Assembly: GCA_965200085.1 (NCBI GenBank)
Contig: OZ241333.1
Location: 2,403,704 to 2,467,703, forward strand
Direction: 5' to 3'
DNA length: 64,000 nucleotides
Source of the DNA: Dehalococcoidia bacterium
GTDB taxonomy: Bacteria; Chloroflexota; Dehalococcoidia; Lucifugimonadales; JADFKI01
Shown here piece by piece: positions 7,596 through 24,433 of the stretch. Both the position numbers and the translations under genes were made by a program. The notes under the pieces are model-generated. The model saw only the letters and a list, made by a program, of their open reading frames with translations. It was not told the DNA's origin and ran no database searches. Each line of letters begins with the position of its first letter. Position 1 is the first letter of the stretch.

Positions 7596-7670
7596 GCGGG
7601 AGTAGCTCAGGGGTAGAGCATCTGCTTCCCAAGCAGAATGTCGCGGGTTCGAATCCCGTCTCCCGCTCCA
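7596..7670 (+). tRNA. tRNA-Gly (anticodon CCC), CCA encoded
   Basis: Folded by hand. Acceptor GCGGGAG/CTCCCGC, D arm GCTC-AGGGGTA-GAGC, anticodon arm TCTGC-TTCCCAA-GCAGA, T arm GCGGG-TTCGAAT-CCCGT, then T-CCA. Confidence 0.9.
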
Positions 7671-14635: not shown

Positions 14636-15898
14636 TCATCGCCCCAGTGCAGGATACTGCCTTGTACCCACGTTTTTGGACGATATTCCCAGAACCTTCA
14701 GAAAGCCTTCGGCATCAGAGTGGTCATAAGTACCCATTGCCTCCATGGAAGAGTCATCTGTGTAGAGCGAATGGGGCATCGCTTCCAGCGTATCCTCGGC
14801 TGTGTCGAAGTATATCCTTCCTTTGAACAGCCTCATGGATACGGTCCCGGTCGCAAGGCGCGTCATAGGTTCAAGCGCTGCCAGCGCGGATGTAGTCGCC
14901 AGATCAAGCCAGTACCCCTGATATATCTGAATGCTTATCACAGTCGACAAATATTCGAAGAGTTCGCGTGCGCGCCGATCCAGTATGAACTGCATCAGAT
15001 ATTCGTAGCTGCTGCCTAACAGTTCCATCGCAGGCGACTCATAGATGCCGCGCGACTTTACGCCCACAAACCTGTTCTCAACGACATGAGTTCCTATACC
15101 TACGCCGTGTGTACCTGCGATGCTGTTCGCCTGCTGAAACATATCGACCAGACTTATAGGATTGCCGTTAAGCGCAACAGGGACGCCCTGTTCCCAGCGA
15201 ATTGTAACCAATTCATACCTATCGGGAGCGTCCCAGGGCCAGACGCCCATTCCCGGCTCGACAAATGTGGGCGAAATCGAGACATCTTCAAGGTCGCCGG
15301 CTTCGTGTGTCAACCCTAGGAAGTTGGCATCGGTAGAGTAACGAGATTCACGCGAAGGTCTTATGGGAAGTTCGTTCGCTTCGCAGTAGTCTAGCATCTG
15401 CTGCCTTCCGGGAAACTGCTGCACAAACTCCGGATCACGCCACGGAGCATACACATGCAACGCCGGCTCCAGCGTGTTTGCCGTCAACTGAAAGCGCACC
15501 TGGTCATTGCCGCGCCCTGTAGCGCCATGAAACAGTACACCGATGTTTTCCGATTGCATCTCCGGCAAAATAGCTTCCACTGTAACAGGACGCGCGATAC
15601 CCGTAGTATTCCAGTAACCTCCTTCATATCGTGCCTGCGACTGTATGACCTTCAGTCCCGCCTCCGCAAGTGCGTCATGCGCCGGGATGATATGAGCGCT
15701 CTCTGCGCCGCAGCCGAGCATGCGATCCTTCACTGCGTCTAGGCTCTCCTCATCCGGCTGTCCGAGGTCAACCGTATAGCAGTGTACTGAAAAGCCCTTG
15801 CTCTTCAGCCAGTGCGTAACAGTGCAGCTGTCAAGTCCGCCGGATACGGCGCCTGCTATTTGCGTTATGTTGCTGTCTTTGAGTTCGCGCCAGTTCAT
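14636..15898 (-). CDS. argG: Argininosuccinate synthase
   Basis: AGAVSGGLDSCTV, FHGATGRGNDQVRF, NRFVGVKSRGIYE. Confidence 0.9.
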   Translation of the reverse strand: MNWRELKDSNITQIAGAVSGGLDSCTVTHWLKSKGFSVHCYTVDLGQPDEESLDAVKDRMLGCGAESAHIIPAHDALAEAGLKVIQSQARYEGGYWNTTGIARPVTVEAILPEMQSENIGVLFHGATGRGNDQVRFQLTANTLEPALHVYAPWRDPEFVQQFPGRQQMLDYCEANELPIRPSRESRYSTDANFLGLTHEAGDLEDVSISPTFVEPGMGVWPWDAPDRYELVTIRWEQGVPVALNGNPISLVDMFQQANSIAGTHGVGIGTHVVENRFVGVKSRGIYESPAMELLGSSYEYLMQFILDRRARELFEYLSTVISIQIYQGYWLDLATTSALAALEPMTRLATGTVSMRLFKGRIYFDTAEDTLEAMPHSLYTDDSSMEAMGTYDHSDAEGFLKVLGISSKNVGTRQYPALGR

Positions 15899-15964
15899 GG
15901 GTGGTTATGCTTCTTTCGTATTAAGTAGAGGTGAAAGTTTATAGAGTTTCTGAAATCGTGCTTC

Positions 15965-16381
15965 TTATGGCGATGCGTAGTATGACTTTATCCGTCTATC
16001 CAACGCATCTTTTTGCGCTTCGGTGATGTTCAACGTCTCCCGCTCAGATTCGATGCTGTGCCAAATCTTATCTATAAGCAGGATGCGTTCATTTATACTC
16101 ATCTTCTTGATGTCCAACCGCTCCCATACTTGGGTTAGGTAGTCCGTTTTCAGGTTATCGTACAAAAATTTGGGAGAGAAGTCGGCGCCGTTTTCCCAGC
16201 ATATCGTCCCTAGTTCTCTATCCAAGCGAACTGTCTTGAAGTAGTCAATCTCTTTGAGTTGTTCAAAGACCGGACCCCATAGTTCGTATTCTAAGTCAAT
16301 CTGCCCCTCTTTGCCGTCTTCAAACTTGAGCCATACTTTGTAGTCGGCGATATACTCATAATCTGTTAGTTCCGGAATCAT
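15965..16381 (-). CDS. DUF2442-domain protein fused to a C-terminal 'putative addiction module component' (Unstab_antitox-like) tail
   Basis: The DUF2442 part is YKVWLKFEDGKEGQIDLEYELWGPVFEQLKEIDYFKTVRLDRELGTICWENGADFSP. The antitoxin-component-like tail is SINERILLIDKIWHSIESERETLNITEAQKDALDRRIKSY. ATG 16381 lies 4 nt after the upstream stop. Confidence 0.75.
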   Translation of the reverse strand: MIPELTDYEYIADYKVWLKFEDGKEGQIDLEYELWGPVFEQLKEIDYFKTVRLDRELGTICWENGADFSPKFLYDNLKTDYLTQVWERLDIKKMSINERILLIDKIWHSIESERETLNITEAQKDALDRRIKSYYASP

Positions 16382-16385
16382 TAGT

Positions 16386-16643
16386 TTACTCCAGAGGTGC
16401 AATCTTTTTGACAGGCTTGCGATTTTGGACCAGTGTCCAATTCTCCATAAGTTCGTCCCGATGCCTATCATGCCATTCCTGAACTGCGCGGAGTTGTCGT
16501 CTTGGAAATTGGCCTTGAATCTCGCCATTCTGTATATCTACGGATATTTTATATCCGCTATATCTCGCATGGAAATGCGGCGGTGAATGATCCCTGTAAT
16601 ACATGACGATGACAATGCCCAGAAATCTGCTTATCTCAGGCAA
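16386..16643 (-). CDS. DUF4160-domain protein
   Basis: MPEISRFLGIVIVMYYRDHSPPHFHARYSGYKISVDI...LRAVQEWHDRHRDELMENW. The start is TTG, with AGGTAGGA upstream. Confidence 0.8.
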   Translation of the reverse strand: MPEISRFLGIVIVMYYRDHSPPHFHARYSGYKISVDIQNGEIQGQFPRRQLRAVQEWHDRHRDELMENWTLVQNRKPVKKIAPLE

Positions 16644-16652
16644 TAATTTGTC

Positions 16653-17357
16653 CTACCTAATACCAATGCCCAAGCGTTTCAATGTGTCTTTAGCCGATTG
16701 AAGCTGAACAGCCTGAGTTACTTCATCATCGCTCGGATCCATAATCAATCTGAAAGTCCCTTTCGGACTAACACGCCAGGCCTTCGGAGTCTGCCCTTTC
16801 TTAATGTAGTCGCCTATTTCACTACCATCCTTATTCATACTTTGATTAGAAGGTATCGTTGTAATTGAACTATGGGCAAATCGTCCTTTTGGGTTTTCCA
16901 AATATTCCCGCAAGTGTTTCCTTTTCCATTCATTCGGAATTATGTCTTGATTACAAAGTTCATAGATGGAATCCCAGAAGCTCATATCAGACATAGTAGA
17001 AGTAATTTTCGCGACCGCGCGACTACTTCCTCGATCCTTTACTTGCGCCTCACGCCACTCCAGCCACCATTTGAGCGACTTACGGCTCTCGCCGGAAGGG
17101 TTTCCTATGAGCAATGCTTTCACACTGATGTCTTCGTCAAGATCAGGCCAGTGTATGCCGCATCCGGATTCAATTATTTCCCAGTTGCTGCGTTCTACGG
17201 GCGTACCGTGCCACAAGCGCGGATACCACACCAGAGGTACGGATATAATGCGAGCGCCTTCCAAGCTAACCGACAACGCATCATCAGTAACGGACACATC
17301 CATCGCGCGTGCTCCGGATAATTTCGTCTTCACCAGCTCATAGTAAGAAGAATTCAT
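16653..17357 (-). CDS. DUF2442-domain protein with an unrecognised 129-aa C-terminal extension. The track ORF 16653-17522 looks like a frameshift-generated chimera with the upstream DUF4160 remnant.
   Basis: The DUF2442 core is VSVTDDALSVSLEGARIISVPLVWYPRLWHGTPVERSNWEIIESGCGIHWPDLDEDISVKALLIGNPSGESRKSLKWWLEWR. The likely native start is ATG 17357 (MNSSYYELV...), which overlaps the DUF4160 3' end by 20 nt. Confidence 0.65.
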   Translation of the reverse strand: MNSSYYELVKTKLSGARAMDVSVTDDALSVSLEGARIISVPLVWYPRLWHGTPVERSNWEIIESGCGIHWPDLDEDISVKALLIGNPSGESRKSLKWWLEWREAQVKDRGSSRAVAKITSTMSDMSFWDSIYELCNQDIIPNEWKRKHLREYLENPKGRFAHSSITTIPSNQSMNKDGSEIGDYIKKGQTPKAWRVSPKGTFRLIMDPSDDEVTQAVQLQSAKDTLKRLGIGIR

Positions 17358-17574
17358 TCCATTTTTCGGAGAACGCTCTTGGTTTGCCATTATCAACTGC
17401 TTAATCCGATTGAGCTCCGCATTACTGAACAGCTTTGACCGTTCAAACTTGACCGGATCTAGCCAGAACTTAGCCTGTCTGTTATCTCTAATCACATGCA
17501 ACATGCGGCGGTTCAATACCATCGCTTGAATAGAAACGAAAACTATAGGGGCCGCTTCGTAATACTGTCGGCAT
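17338..17574 (-). pseudogene. DUF4160-family gene disrupted by two compensating frameshifts
   Basis: From ATG 17574 the frame reads MPTVLRSGPYSFRFYSSDGIEPPHVACD*. The conserved continuation HVIRDNRQAKFWLDPVKFERSKLFSNAELNRIKQLIMANQE is in the +1 frame. The family-like end FSEKWNEFFLL* (stop 17338-17340) is back in the original frame. Confidence 0.65.
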
Positions 17575-17609: not shown

Positions 17610-18812
17610 CTATCCTGCGGTCGCAGTATCAAGCGCACGGTTGAGCTTTTCGATGCATTCGTCCACATCCGCCTCCGTGATAATAAGCGGCGGCATAAAG
17701 CGGATAGCATCAGGCAGCACCGGATTAAGAAGCACGCCTTCATCGTTCGCGGCGGCAACTACTGCAGGCGCAATTGCCGATTGCAGCTGGAGAGCGAGCA
17801 GCAGCCCCATGCCGCGCACACCCTTCACTACATCCGGACGCGCCGTTCTCATCTCTTCGAGCTTGGATTCGAGATACGCCCCGACTTTGCGCGCGTGCCC
17901 AGGTATGTCGTTCTCCACCATGTAGCGCACTGTGGCATTGCCTGCCGCTGTAGTGAGAACATTTCCGCCGAAAGTGCTGCCATGGTCACCCGGCTCCAAA
18001 ACATCGCAGCTGTCTTTGCACATGAATGCGCCGATAGGTACGCCGTTTCCAAGTCCTTTAGCAGATGTCATCACATCAGGCTCTACATCGAAGCGCTCAT
18101 ATCCCCAGAGACTACCCAACCGTCCCATGCCGGTCTGCACCTCATCGAATATCAGCAGGATGTTGTTCTCATCGCACCATTCACGTAGCCCTTTGAGGTA
18201 TCCCTCGCTTGGTACATTGACACCACCCTCACCTTGCAAAACCTCGACCATTATCGCGGCAGTGTTATCCGTAGTAGCTCCGCGTATCGCATCCAGGTCT
18301 TCGTAAGGCACATTCGTGTAACCTTCGGCAAGCGGCAGCCACGCCTGCTGATACGCTGGCTGTCCGGTCGCCGCAATCATGCCGAGCGTGCGTCCATGGA
18401 ACGAATTAAGCACGGTGATGACATCCTGCGCCCCGTTGCGATGCAGCCGACCATACTTACGAGCTAACTTAACCGCGCCCTCGTTCGCTTCCACACCGCT
18501 ATTGGAGAAGAACACCTTGTCCATGCAACTGTTCTCGACTAGCGCCTCGGCAAGTTCAAGCTGAGGAATCGTGTAGAATAGATTGGACGTCTGCACCAGC
18601 GTTCCCGCCTGCTGACGAATGGCTTCGGTAACGACTGGGTGGCAGTGTCCGAGGTTGTTCACTGCTAATCCTGCTGCAAAATCAAGATACTCTTTGCCGT
18701 CAGTATCCCATACGCGGGCGCCCTGTCCGCGCTCAATCACCATAGGCTGACGATTGAACGTATGAATGTAGTATCTGCTTTCTTTCTCTTTCCATTCCGC
18801 TGCTGATGTCAT
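17610..18812 (-). CDS. argD: Acetylornithine aminotransferase
   Basis: YLDFAAGLAVNNLGHCHP, FFSNSGVEANEGAVKLARKY, LIFDEVQTGMGRLG, SAKGLGNGVPIG. Confidence 0.9.
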   Translation of the reverse strand: MTSAAEWKEKESRYYIHTFNRQPMVIERGQGARVWDTDGKEYLDFAAGLAVNNLGHCHPVVTEAIRQQAGTLVQTSNLFYTIPQLELAEALVENSCMDKVFFSNSGVEANEGAVKLARKYGRLHRNGAQDVITVLNSFHGRTLGMIAATGQPAYQQAWLPLAEGYTNVPYEDLDAIRGATTDNTAAIMVEVLQGEGGVNVPSEGYLKGLREWCDENNILLIFDEVQTGMGRLGSLWGYERFDVEPDVMTSAKGLGNGVPIGAFMCKDSCDVLEPGDHGSTFGGNVLTTAAGNATVRYMVENDIPGHARKVGAYLESKLEEMRTARPDVVKGVRGMGLLLALQLQSAIAPAVVAAANDEGVLLNPVLPDAIRFMPPLIITEADVDECIEKLNRALDTATAG

Positions 18813-18922: not shown

Positions 18923-21736
18923 CTACTGATCCCCAAGAGATTCAGTCAATCTGTCCAGAGCTTCCTCAAGTTCCGCAAGGCTCTGCTTCACTTCTTGTAT
19001 AGCGTTCTGAATAGTCTCGACTGTCGCATCCACCGCACCTCCTGAAGATACCTGCTGTGGTGCAGCGTCCGCCGGTCTGTCTTCAGATTCAGTATCAGTG
19101 AGGAAATAATCTGAGCCTGTCAGCGCGCTAAGCGCCTCATTGAGCGAATCTTCCATCACAACTTTGTCGCCGGTGGCAAGTATGACCCGCTTCAATTCAG
19201 GGAAGTTAACCCCCTCCGCTCGGATGTAAACCGGTTCCGCGTATAATATGCCCTGGTCAACGGGTATAACCAACAGGTTGCCCCTTATGCACTCTGAACC
19301 GGTCGTACAGCGCAGGGTAAACCACGCCGAAATATCTTGGTTGTTATCTATGCGTGCCTCTATCTGTGCGGGTCCGTCAATCTGCCTGTCCTTAGGGAAG
19401 TTAAACGCTATCAAGCCGCCATAATTTTCACCATCGCTGCGCGCTGCGAGCCAGCCGATAAGATTCTGCCGTTCGTTTGGCGTGTACGGCAGAAGCAGCA
19501 CAAACTCTTCCTTCTCTTCCTCGGGCAGTTTCATGATTACATAATACGGCTCCACCTGATTAAGCTCATCACCTTGCCCAAACTTCTCCTCAGCCACTGC
19601 CCACAGGTCTTCGTTATTGTAGAAGTTTTGCGGCTCTTGCATGTGATAGCGGATGTACTTCTCCGCCTGTATGCGGAATAAGTCCTGCGGATAACGCACA
19701 TGCTCTCTGAGGGCTTCAGGCATATCCGCTTGTGAAAGGAACAGCGTAGGGAATATACGGGCGTAGGTTTGTACAATAGAGTCTGACTCGTCCCAAATAT
19801 AGAACCGCAGATCGCCAGTGAACGCATCCACCGTGATTTTCACGCTGTTGCGCATGTAGTTCAGCTCGCCCCCAAGCGGATCCGAGTACGGATACCTGTC
19901 AGTGTAGGTATATGCGTCCTGAATCCAGAACAAGCCTCCGTCAGCGACTGCAATATACGGATCATTGTCAAGAAGCAGGAAGGGCGCAACCGTATGAACA
20001 CGTTCTTGAATCGCACGCCGATATTGCAGACGGCTATCCCCTGTAATCTGTCCGCTGATGAGTATATTGATATCGGCAAACTGCCACGCATAAGAGAGCC
20101 GGCGGAACAAAGAAGATAGGCGCACGCCCCCATGTCCGTGATAGTTTGTGCGGAACAGTTCCCCTCCCTCAGTCTGATAGTCAAGCTCATCTTGAAGCGT
20201 ATTGACTATCACATAATCCACGGTATTCTCGCCATAGTATATACGCGGATTAGTAACCAAAAGTTCCGGCGGACCTTCTGCATCTACTGCCTGGATTGGG
20301 ATTATCCCATCTGCCGGTATGTCCTTGGCGAAAAACTCGGGCCTCCCCTCAGCCGTGAACTCTGTTACAGGGCTCATGGCGATACCCATACCGTGTGTAT
20401 ATACGAGGCGAGTGTTCGTCCAGTTCTGCGCTCCCGGGTCTAGTTTTTCCGGCGCAATCTCGCGCGCTGAAAGCAGCACCTGCCTTATCTCTCCACCTAG
20501 TTCGTAGCGGTCAACATCAGCATCCCGGAAGTCATAGTAGGTCCGGATGAGCTGAATCTGTCTATATACACTGGACAAGGGGCGGTAATCCCACAACCGT
20601 ATATTATTAATAGTCAGCGGGTTACGCTTAATAACTTCAGCGTCCACATCGGTCTGAGCCGAATAGAACTGTTCCACAACACGGTCAAGCCCGAATGCGC
20701 TGCGAGTGAACTTAATGTTGCGCTCTATGAATGGAGCCTCGCGCACGAACTCGTTAGGGTTAACCGTGAACTGCTGAATTAAGCTTGGCCAAACGCTGCC
20801 CAACACGATGTTCGCTACGAACCAGAGCGCAAACGCCCCAATGAGCAGACGTCTGCCGCTAATGTATGTGTTCGCCAGCATAAGCAAGCCCGCGCCCACA
20901 GCTATAATCGTCATTATCAGCAGCGCAGGCATACGCGCGTTCACATCAGCGTATGCCGCTCCAAACACCGCGCCTTCTTCGGAAAGCAGCAAGTCCCATC
21001 TGTCAAGCCAATGACCAAATCCGATAGTGAACATCACCAATGCCGCAATAATTGACAAGTGTATCTTCACACCCGGCGCGTTCAGGTCAAGCCTCATGCC
21101 TTGCATGCTGAAACGAAGAAAATAATAAGCGAGCGAAGCAAGCAGTGTCAGTATCAGCGCGCCTAATACCCAGCCTTGTAAAACGTTGAACATAGGAAGC
21201 GTGAACACGTAGAAACCTACGTCCCGTCCGAACACAGGATCCACCTGCCCAAAAGGCAGAGCGTTTGAGAAGCGCAGGAAGACTTCCCACTGAGCTGACA
21301 GTATTGTGCCAAAGATGACGGCAAGCACAGCCACGGCGGCCACACTTATAATAATCAGCGCGCGGCTCATGAATCTCAGGAGGTCGTCGGGCAGGGGCAG
21401 CGATATCCTGCCCCTAGAAATGAAACTCGCAGCAAAGATACTCACGCCGGCAAGCACCGCCATCGCAACAGCACCGGCAACAAACAAGGTTATGCGCGTC
21501 ATCAAAACCTTGACAAAGATACCGCGATAGCCCAAATTATCGAACCAAAGCCAATCCGTATAGACGCCGCGTCCAAACAGGAACATCGCGAACAGAATCG
21601 CAGCCACAGCAGCGAACGCAATCCATTTCGCGAGGGTGCCTATCTGCCCAAAAAACTGATACAACTCTATGGTGGAAGCGTCATCGCCGCCGTTGCCTCT
21701 GTCTCCACTGCTGCCGTTCTGATATTCACCAGCCAT
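18923..21736 (-). CDS. UPF0182-family large polytopic membrane protein
   Basis: 937 aa. The N-terminal multi-TM region carries TDWLWFDNLGYRGIFVKVL, followed by a large soluble part and an acidic tail. The length and motifs are typical of UPF0182/COG1615. Confidence 0.8.
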   Translation of the reverse strand: MAGEYQNGSSGDRGNGGDDASTIELYQFFGQIGTLAKWIAFAAVAAILFAMFLFGRGVYTDWLWFDNLGYRGIFVKVLMTRITLFVAGAVAMAVLAGVSIFAASFISRGRISLPLPDDLLRFMSRALIIISVAAVAVLAVIFGTILSAQWEVFLRFSNALPFGQVDPVFGRDVGFYVFTLPMFNVLQGWVLGALILTLLASLAYYFLRFSMQGMRLDLNAPGVKIHLSIIAALVMFTIGFGHWLDRWDLLLSEEGAVFGAAYADVNARMPALLIMTIIAVGAGLLMLANTYISGRRLLIGAFALWFVANIVLGSVWPSLIQQFTVNPNEFVREAPFIERNIKFTRSAFGLDRVVEQFYSAQTDVDAEVIKRNPLTINNIRLWDYRPLSSVYRQIQLIRTYYDFRDADVDRYELGGEIRQVLLSAREIAPEKLDPGAQNWTNTRLVYTHGMGIAMSPVTEFTAEGRPEFFAKDIPADGIIPIQAVDAEGPPELLVTNPRIYYGENTVDYVIVNTLQDELDYQTEGGELFRTNYHGHGGVRLSSLFRRLSYAWQFADINILISGQITGDSRLQYRRAIQERVHTVAPFLLLDNDPYIAVADGGLFWIQDAYTYTDRYPYSDPLGGELNYMRNSVKITVDAFTGDLRFYIWDESDSIVQTYARIFPTLFLSQADMPEALREHVRYPQDLFRIQAEKYIRYHMQEPQNFYNNEDLWAVAEEKFGQGDELNQVEPYYVIMKLPEEEKEEFVLLLPYTPNERQNLIGWLAARSDGENYGGLIAFNFPKDRQIDGPAQIEARIDNNQDISAWFTLRCTTGSECIRGNLLVIPVDQGILYAEPVYIRAEGVNFPELKRVILATGDKVVMEDSLNEALSALTGSDYFLTDTESEDRPADAAPQQVSSGGAVDATVETIQNAIQEVKQSLAELEEALDRLTESLGDQ

Positions 21737-24245: not shown

Positions 24246-24317
24246 GGGCTTGTAGCTCAGCGGCAGAGCGGTCGGCTCATAACCGATTGGTCCCAGGTTC
24301 GATCCCTGGCAAGCCCA
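24246..24317 (+). tRNA. tRNA with anticodon CAT: elongator Met, or Ile2 if lysidine-modified. It does not look like an initiator.
   Basis: Folded by hand. Acceptor GGGCTTG/CAAGCCC, D arm GCTC-AGCGGCA-GAGC, anticodon arm GTCGG-CTCATAA-CCGAT, T arm CCAGG-TTCGATC-CCTGG, discriminator A, no encoded CCA. It lacks the three consecutive G-C pairs in the anticodon stem that mark initiators. Confidence 0.88.
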
Positions 24318-24433
24318 CTTCCAGCCAACCACATAATGTCGTATAAAGACAAAGAGCATACTTCCGCTTTTGATGACTAACACAACCCGCTCAGACACAT
24401 CCATCACATCCACGCCAACAAGGTGATGAGCAG

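Follow-up and report, generated by a model that had tools for sequence, protein, structure and literature searches.

The 64,000-nucleotide (nt) stretch of DNA analyzed here (the window, at its full length), from a marine SAR202 bacterium (Dehalococcoidia), carries a cassette of small genes among its arginine biosynthesis genes. The cassette lies on the minus strand, with all its parts and both flanking genes, in a 1711-nt region enclosed by an argD-type aminotransferase gene (Aminotran_3; acetylornithine aminotransferase; 17610-18812) as the upstream flank and argG (argininosuccinate synthase; 14636-15898) as the downstream flank. From argD to argG, it contains a frameshifted toxin gene (T1), an antitoxin gene with a C-terminal extension (A1-X), a second toxin gene (T2), and a second antitoxin gene (A2). 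When the true starts are used, the junctions in this direction are 35 nt, a 20-nt overlap, 9 nt, 4 nt, and 66 nt. The guanine plus cytosine (GC) content of the cassette is 45.5%, compared with 53% for the window on average, and no other 1.6-kb stretch of the window is as low. An earlier note on this DNA had placed four tightly packed open reading frames (ORFs) at these coordinates, on this strand, and between these flanks, with the same junctions, and had interpreted them as a compositionally foreign two-component module of toxin–antitoxin (TA) or defence type inserted into a core operon. The positions and junctions are borne out, and the compositional contrast is real. The four genes with their domains are also present, but the first of them is not an ORF, since the three peptides quoted for it lie in two frames. 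All of the DUF4160, DUF2442, and antitoxin-component assignments were recovered by Pfam, and the last of them by TIGR02574 as well. In each module, a DUF4160 toxin gene is followed directly by a DUF2442 antitoxin gene in a toxin-first bicistron, and the cassette belongs to the DhiT/DhiA (DUF4160/DUF2442) type II TA superfamily, which has characterized members, and not to a system without known function. The note's reading as a two-component module of TA type is supported.

In module 2, T2 (16386..16643) encodes an apparently intact toxin of 85 amino acids (aa) with a TTG start and a PPHFH motif, which matches Pfam DUF4160 (PF13711) with an E value of 1.8e-22 and NCBIfam toxin_DhiT with 9.7e-24 (83.8 bits, against an equivalog cutoff of 100). 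The TTG start is conserved in the related loci L011 and L061, and L050 has GTG; toxins of this subfamily thus seem to be characterized by a weak start codon. The invariant toxin residues are M1, P2, H23, H25, and W69, and the PHxH motif is invariant together with M1, P2, and W69 across both subfamilies. One may speculate that the invariance of PHxH reflects a metal-dependent or nucleolytic activity. A2 (15965..16381) encodes 138 aa, consisting of a DUF2442 domain (Pfam, E 5.3e-14) and a C-terminal ParD2-like Unstab_antitox hairpin (~16105-15977). Its start at 16381 is fixed by homologues, although the version given by the ORF lister and by some gene callers is longer (187 aa). The hairpin scores above the cutoffs of both PF09720 (3.7e-10; profile positions 1-42 of 54) and TIGR02574 (7.8e-13; positions 1-47 of 65). 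The antitoxin-type fusion described in the note is genuine. The match to NCBIfam antoxin_DhiA is weaker (8e-8; 32.9 bits, against an equivalog cutoff of 200). In the AlphaFold2 model of A2 (predicted local distance difference test [pLDDT] 82), a β-rich DUF2442 domain (pLDDT ~90) is followed by a helical hairpin, and the best PDB match of the model is 2AUW (Foldseek E 1.8e-3, probability 1.00), with 3K8R next. A ParE/RelE-family toxin gene adjacent to A2 was found neither in the cassette nor in the 64-kb window by tblastn. Canonical Unstab_antitox-ParE pairs are carried by the related locus L006 at the argD-argG site.

A2 was taken as complete in the earlier note, with an intergenic gap of 66 nt behind it. 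Comparison with homologues points elsewhere. A2 ends with ...SYYASP at a premature TAA (15967-15965), whereas the full-length fused homologues (P0002-P0012, L011) are 153-157 aa long and end with ...SYRASPGxxVTWEAVKARLISTKDA. Colinear DNA alignment with L011 and L016 places the decayed former 3' end of A2 at 15905..15964; its ancestral stop codon, TAA, is still visible at 15907-15905 and is separated by 6 nt from the ATG of argG. On this alignment, the apparent 66-nt spacer upstream of argG is what remains of the A2 3' end. The N-terminal 42 of the 54 Unstab_antitox positions, including the invariant S..ER, are kept, and only the C-terminal tail is lost.

Module 1 has lost its toxin. T1 (17338..17574), a DUF4160 gene of the DhiT superfamily, was delineated by three-frame translation and alignment to homologues. 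When the DNA is aligned with L011 and five intact homologues, two indels are evident. A +1 insertion at ~17499 (CATGTT[G]CATGTG) falls within the PHxH motif, after the codon of its first invariant His and before that of the second, and creates a TAG at 17490-17488; a -1 deletion at ~17370, 129 nt downstream of the insertion, restores the frame. Accordingly, the N-terminal peptide MPTVLRSGPYSFRFYSSDGIEPPHV ends at the TAG, the middle peptide (HVIRDNRQAKFWLDPV...) is read in the frame of a 289-aa ORF, and the frame of the first peptide resumes at the end, EKWNEFFLL*. The reconstructed T1 of 78 aa matches Pfam DUF4160 with an E value of 7e-17. An intact 78-aa T1 with 68% identity to the reconstructed one exists in L084 (1379-1615; 87% argG identity), where it overlaps its antitoxin gene by 20 nt as in the window. 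Indels are the typical error of long reads, and the two shifts compensate each other, so they could in principle be errors of sequencing or assembly in a cassette of four intact genes. However, three Logan assemblies from separate runs match the window at 100% identity over 4795 nt that include T1, the locus occurs in 22 contigs with the same neighboring gene products, and the insertion lies outside a homopolymer run (GTT[G]CAT); we regard the error explanation as hardly credible. Because T1 is shifted relative to intact homologues, is identical in the three assemblies, and has an intact counterpart in L084, the alignments identify it as a genuine pseudogene, a point that the earlier note missed. 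Programmed frameshifting was also considered for T1 and rejected, as it would require two opposite shifts with an in-frame TAG directly after the first, and intact single-frame homologues exist. Through the -1 deletion, the central part of the dead toxin has come into the reading frame of A1. The resulting continuous ORF of 289 codons opens at ATG 17522 (16653-17522) and has a putative chimeric extension at its N terminus; the ORF lister gives 289 aa for it, and some gene callers 289 or 283 aa.

The antitoxin A1-X (16653..17357; 234 aa) starts at ATG 17357 (MNSSYYELVKTKLSGARAMDV), as in its homologues, and this start accounts for the 20-nt overlap with the 3' end of T1. Its N-terminal DUF2442 core (~17357-17045) gives the 289-aa ORF a Pfam DUF2442 match with an E value of 2.4e-16. 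Similarity to the relatives ends at ~17044, and ~130 codons remain, most of which form the C-terminal domain X (16985-16656). The whole of A1-X is a 234-codon open frame in DNA of 41-53% GC. P0051/L084 has the same DUF2442-X fusion, and as its X part contains no internal Met, the fusion of X to an A1-type DUF2442 is real.

The earlier note could not place the last 129 residues of A1. They have no Pfam or NCBIfam model but hold a conserved domain of ~100 aa (16656..16985). When 1.84 billion cluster representatives were scanned in full with HMMER, 88 homologues of X emerged, 44 of them below 1e-10, with up to 58% identity; most align their own residue 1 to M180 of the 289-aa ORF. A word-index protein search with the A1 tail gave no match, and the HMMER scan alone recovered the family, so a negative from an indexed search should not be taken as evidence of an orphan. 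A tblastx comparison of the X-coding DNA with 80 related argG loci returned nothing, and a PDB sequence search with the A1 tail, T2, and A2 returned nothing significant. The AlphaFold2 model of X, built from an alignment of 27 sequences, reached a pLDDT of 96 and a predicted template modeling score of 0.85. Its topology, H-b-H-H-(h)-b-b-H, looks like that of a winged helix. Foldseek against the PDB found no significant match (best E 0.9), and the weak ones include PadR, Z-alpha, and ROQ. The X family is well conserved, its fold is predicted with confidence, and neither Pfam nor NCBIfam has a model for it; it merits a family definition.

X occurs in several architectures: stand-alone proteins of 110-168 aa, tandem copies, N- or C-terminal domains of ~320-aa proteins, and fusions to A1-type DUF2442. 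The ~320-aa proteins have varied partner domains that are unannotated or nuclease-like. In P0055, P0072, P0060, and P0045-P0050, X is joined N- or C-terminally to several different unannotated domains; some of these partners resemble PD-(D/E)xK nucleases by eye (…EEDREGADL.V.VDG…IEVKGT…), and another is a ~220-aa domain that ends with HFTD[IV]KKLDLFLWQ and has a weak DUF6308 match. In L085, L086, L088, L094, and L096, a stand-alone X gene directly precedes a PIN gene and overlaps it by 4 nt, in a syntenic SAR202 locus consisting of a luciferase-like gene, the X-PIN pair, and an esterase gene; two other X contexts have no PIN gene. The motif R-Y-P-L-x-G-x-P-Y-R-Y-D-x-P-[FY]-E-P recurs at the C terminus of the X proteins paired with PIN genes. 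In the window, X is not part of a VapBC-type pair, as the 64-kb sequence contains no PIN gene. X is probably a new DNA-binding domain of antitoxins. The SAR202 locus with the X-PIN pair is itself variable (L085 858-7300; also L086, L088, L093, L094, and L096). Its order is a luciferase-like monooxygenase gene, the X-PIN pair, and then a BD-FAE esterase gene, often with an AAA_21 (AbiEii-like ATPase) plus DUF4276 pair before it and Uma2 after it, and it looks like another TA/defence hotspot.

The argD-argG junction was compared among relatives. By its ArgG protein, the window belongs to SAR202/Dehalococcoidia, with the best species-representative matches being 88% identical. Among 80 species-representative loci, argD lies directly upstream of argG in 65, and the spacer in these ranges from 0 to 3434 nt (≤150 nt in 26, 151-500 nt in nine, and >500 nt in 30). 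Five of the closest relatives (L004, L005, L007, L008, and L010) lack the cassette, having gaps of 45-113 nt with mutually dissimilar spacers. In L011, T1 and A1 survive as relics, and T2 and A2 are present with 78% and 69% identity, respectively; L012 and L009 have relics only. The gap cargo was classified with domain-trimmed profiles, which keep DUF2442 apart from Unstab_antitox despite the fusion proteins. A Pfam scan of 100 sense-strand gap ORFs gave DUF2442 (18), Unstab_antitox (13), DUF4160 (nine), DUF2283 (nine), Uma2 (seven), and ParE (seven), with single cases including GmrSD, AAA_21 plus DUF4276, PIN, and an IS481 transposase; none of the 62 antisense gap ORFs of at least 80 aa matched Pfam. 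In essentially every occupied locus, the gap has a lower GC content than its flanks. Fusions of DUF2442 to Unstab_antitox are found in both subfamilies of the antitoxin (L011, L014, and L016). The cassette is not the outcome of a single clean insertion: across the lineage, this old hotspot has repeatedly gained and lost such cargo, which also decays there. The insertion into a core operon proposed earlier holds in that the cassette is foreign in composition and absent from the junction of the closest relatives, but the single event it implied does not. The result documents a TA/defence cargo hotspot inside a biosynthetic operon of SAR202/Dehalococcoidia, with all cargo co-oriented with the operon, and such a site is a natural system for studying the tolerance and decay of selfish cassettes within operons.

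Intact DUF4160 genes (≥78 aa) were found in seven loci, against 15 with DUF2442. DUF4160 is frameshifted, truncated, or a relic in L061 (7385-7647), L043 (7483-7740), L031 (4613-4801), L011 (7054-7263), and L012 (7773-7988), and neighboring DUF2442 genes stay open. Decay of the toxin first seems to be the rule at the argD-argG site. A separate 246-aa ORF without a Pfam or NCBIfam match lies between argD and the intact T1/A1-X module of L084 (555-1295), as further cargo of this hotspot.

Direct repeats flanking the cassette and attC-like inverted repeats around it were not found above chance. With inter-gene spacers of 4-35 nt and no meaningful inverted or direct flanking repeats, the cassette does not have the features of an integron array, and integrase genes are absent from the gap cargo of the relatives, the sole exception being the IS481 transposase of one relative. 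The only tRNA genes of the window, tRNA-Gly(CCC) (7596-7670) and tRNA-Met(CAT) (24246-24318), are not near the cassette, and tRNA-targeted integration therefore does not explain it. The window holds no ParE gene (tblastn), no PIN gene, and no further copies of the cassette families. No terminator-like site was found on the minus strand of the cassette; as the cargo is always co-oriented, argG is presumably transcribed through it. A gene for a UPF0182 membrane protein of 937 aa (18923-21736, minus strand) lies between argD and argB (AA_kinase; seen in L001). The order argB-UPF0182-argD is kept in nearly all related loci, so the arginine gene string is interrupted by a conserved non-arginine gene.

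Here, we propose that the cassette consists of two tandem toxin-first modules of the DhiT/DhiA superfamily, both partly decayed, in a lineage-wide argD-argG hotspot, and that module 2 is probably still functional; we consider this explanation likely. Free DUF4160 toxin arrests growth, as shown for family members elsewhere. By analogy, the DUF2442 domain of A2 would bind and neutralize T2, the complex would repress its own transcription, and the weak TTG start of T2 would keep the toxin below the antitoxin. Module 1, having apparently lost its toxin to the two frameshifts, would survive as an orphan antitoxin. The C-terminal add-ons appear to be borrowed from other antitoxin families, as a ParD2-like hairpin in A2 and, in A1, domain X, which makes up the N-terminal body of the PIN-paired proteins found elsewhere in the antitoxin position, and may serve as interchangeable domains for binding operator DNA, for dimerization, or for both, with DUF2442 as the neutralizing core. 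Since the window has no ParE or PIN gene, the add-ons have no cognate toxin nearby. The recruitment by DUF2442 of modules from other antitoxins points to a division of labor between neutralization and DNA binding. A more general form of this idea is that DUF2442 antitoxins are modular chimeras, in which a constant neutralizing core is combined with interchangeable operator-binding modules from unrelated antitoxin families and shuffled in situ at operon-internal hotspots such as argD-argG, where several TA families are neighbors. The two modules here would be the ParD2-like hairpin and X, the latter otherwise known from antitoxins in the VapB position next to PIN toxins and from the N termini of nuclease-like proteins. 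We offer this generalization tentatively, as a possibility we do not favor at present; if it is true, such shuffling could wire TA families into shared regulation or cross-neutralization.

Several points weigh against the proposed explanation. The scores of the products fall below the NCBIfam equivalog cutoffs, so they are not identical at the equivalog level to Dickeya DhiT/DhiA but are distant members of the superfamily and not orthologues of the validated pair. Lacking its last ~19 residues, A2 may leave module 2 impaired too. DNA binding by either add-on is what we infer by analogy, and the winged-helix reading of X is taken from its topology only. The X-PIN contexts are not independent of each other, because they are mostly one syntenic locus in related genomes. 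A promoter search around the cassette gave nothing above chance.

The decay at the locus raises the question of whether the whole cassette is a non-functional relic, with module 2 dead as well and its ORFs persisting through slow decay. The two frameshifts of T1, the premature stop of A2, the relics of the same genes in L011, L012, and L009, and the recurrent loss of intact toxins among the relatives all fit such a history. T2, however, is full length with all invariant residues and a conserved TTG start, the DUF2442 domain of A2 is intact and confidently modeled, and the chance of the 130-codon X part staying open at random is ~3e-4 by our own estimate. On balance, a cassette that is dead throughout seems unlikely. 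A different fate would be domestication, in which the surviving A1-X and A2 act as transcription factors for the arginine operon or, in trans, for other TA loci. Both antitoxins have putative DNA-binding add-ons, A1 persists without its toxin, and the cassette sits inside the argB-UPF0182-argD-argG string, where A2 ancestrally reached almost to the argG start. Nevertheless, close relatives that lack the cassette keep the same arginine genes, so it is dispensable for their regulation; there is no operator evidence, and the window offers no ParE or PIN partner. We give little credence to domestication.

The defence-like part of the earlier interpretation found no direct support. An active anti-phage module acting by abortive infection, in place of a selfish or stabilizing TA system, is suggested by the listing of DUF4160 as an effector domain of Menshen (NsnC) (PMC12065111) and by the occurrence of GmrSD, an AAA_21/AbiEii-like protein with DUF4276, and Uma2 at the same junction in relatives. 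However, none of the four products matched a PADLOC model (PADLOC-DB v2, E up to 1), no sensor or NTPase component is present, and one toxin is dead and one antitoxin truncated. An anti-phage role is rather improbable, and the partly decayed pair of DhiT/DhiA-type modules remains our preferred explanation. These genes should be labeled in annotation as DhiT/DhiA-family TA components, one of them a pseudogene, instead of as DUFs.

The view in the earlier note that DUF4160-DUF2442 pairs have no experimentally established function is outdated, as pairs were validated in Dickeya dadantii in 2021 (PMC8198452) and on a Thermus plasmid in 2025 (PMC12724237), and NCBIfam models exist. The dhiTA locus of D. 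dadantii 3937 is a DUF4160/DUF2442 pair; DhiT inhibits the growth of Dickeya and Escherichia coli, co-expression of DhiA abolishes this toxicity, and repression of the promoter by the DhiTA complex amounts to 70-99% (PMC8198452). The modules of the window share with Dickeya DhiT/DhiA (NF048015/NF048016) the domain pair, the toxin-first order, and the tightly coupled or overlapping genes, and DhiA also extends C-terminally beyond DUF2442 (profile of 160 aa). They differ in their add-ons (the ParD2-like hairpin and domain X), in the pseudogenization of one toxin, in their Chloroflexota host, and in their location in a chromosomal hotspot inside an operon. The 'persistence-enhancing module' of the Thermus thermophilus plasmid has the same families in the same order; it stabilizes plasmids, and deletion of ORF2 (DUF2442), not ORF1 (DUF4160), prevents transformation, which identifies ORF1 as the toxin and ORF2 as the antidote by genetics (PMC12724237). 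Its proteins are single-domain (DUF4160 of 87 aa and DUF2442 of 92 aa) and plasmid-borne, whereas the copies in the window are chromosomal and their antitoxins are fused.

The add-ons recall other antitoxins. In A2, the last 45 residues correspond to the N-terminal 42 of the 54 PF09720 positions, including the conserved S..ER region, and in ParD2 of Mycobacterium tuberculosis this region is required for promoter binding (PMC4906023). In contrast to ParDE, the domain in A2 follows DUF2442 within one protein and has lost its C-terminal tail, and no ParE is adjacent or in the window. NE0471 of Nitrosomonas europaea (PDB 2AUW, deposited as 'putative DNA binding protein') likewise combines a DUF2442-type N-domain with a helical C-domain, but the latter is of another family than that of A2; to our knowledge, no function of NE0471 has been published. 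Stand-alone X (130-168 aa) occupies the position of VapB in VapB-VapC, directly upstream of a PIN gene with a 4-nt overlap, and X itself lies where VapB-type antitoxins have their DNA-binding N-domain. By Pfam, NCBIfam, and Foldseek, X matches no described class of VapB DNA-binding domain (AbrB, ribbon-helix-helix [RHH], Phd/YefM, or helix-turn-helix [HTH]), and X in the window has neither the C-terminal tail nor a PIN partner.

Hotspots for the integration of defence and TA genes between conserved core genes, and cassette arrays of integrons, are general concepts. The argD-argG site differs from them in having no integrase, attC-like repeats, flanking direct repeats, or tRNA gene, and resembles them in its variable, co-oriented, low-GC small cargo between conserved genes, with close relatives that are either empty or occupied. 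Nothing here overturns current understanding: the core of the cassette is a known TA superfamily, and what is new relative to the known systems is the DUF2442-X and other chimeric antitoxins, the X family, and the documentation of an operon-internal hotspot in SAR202.

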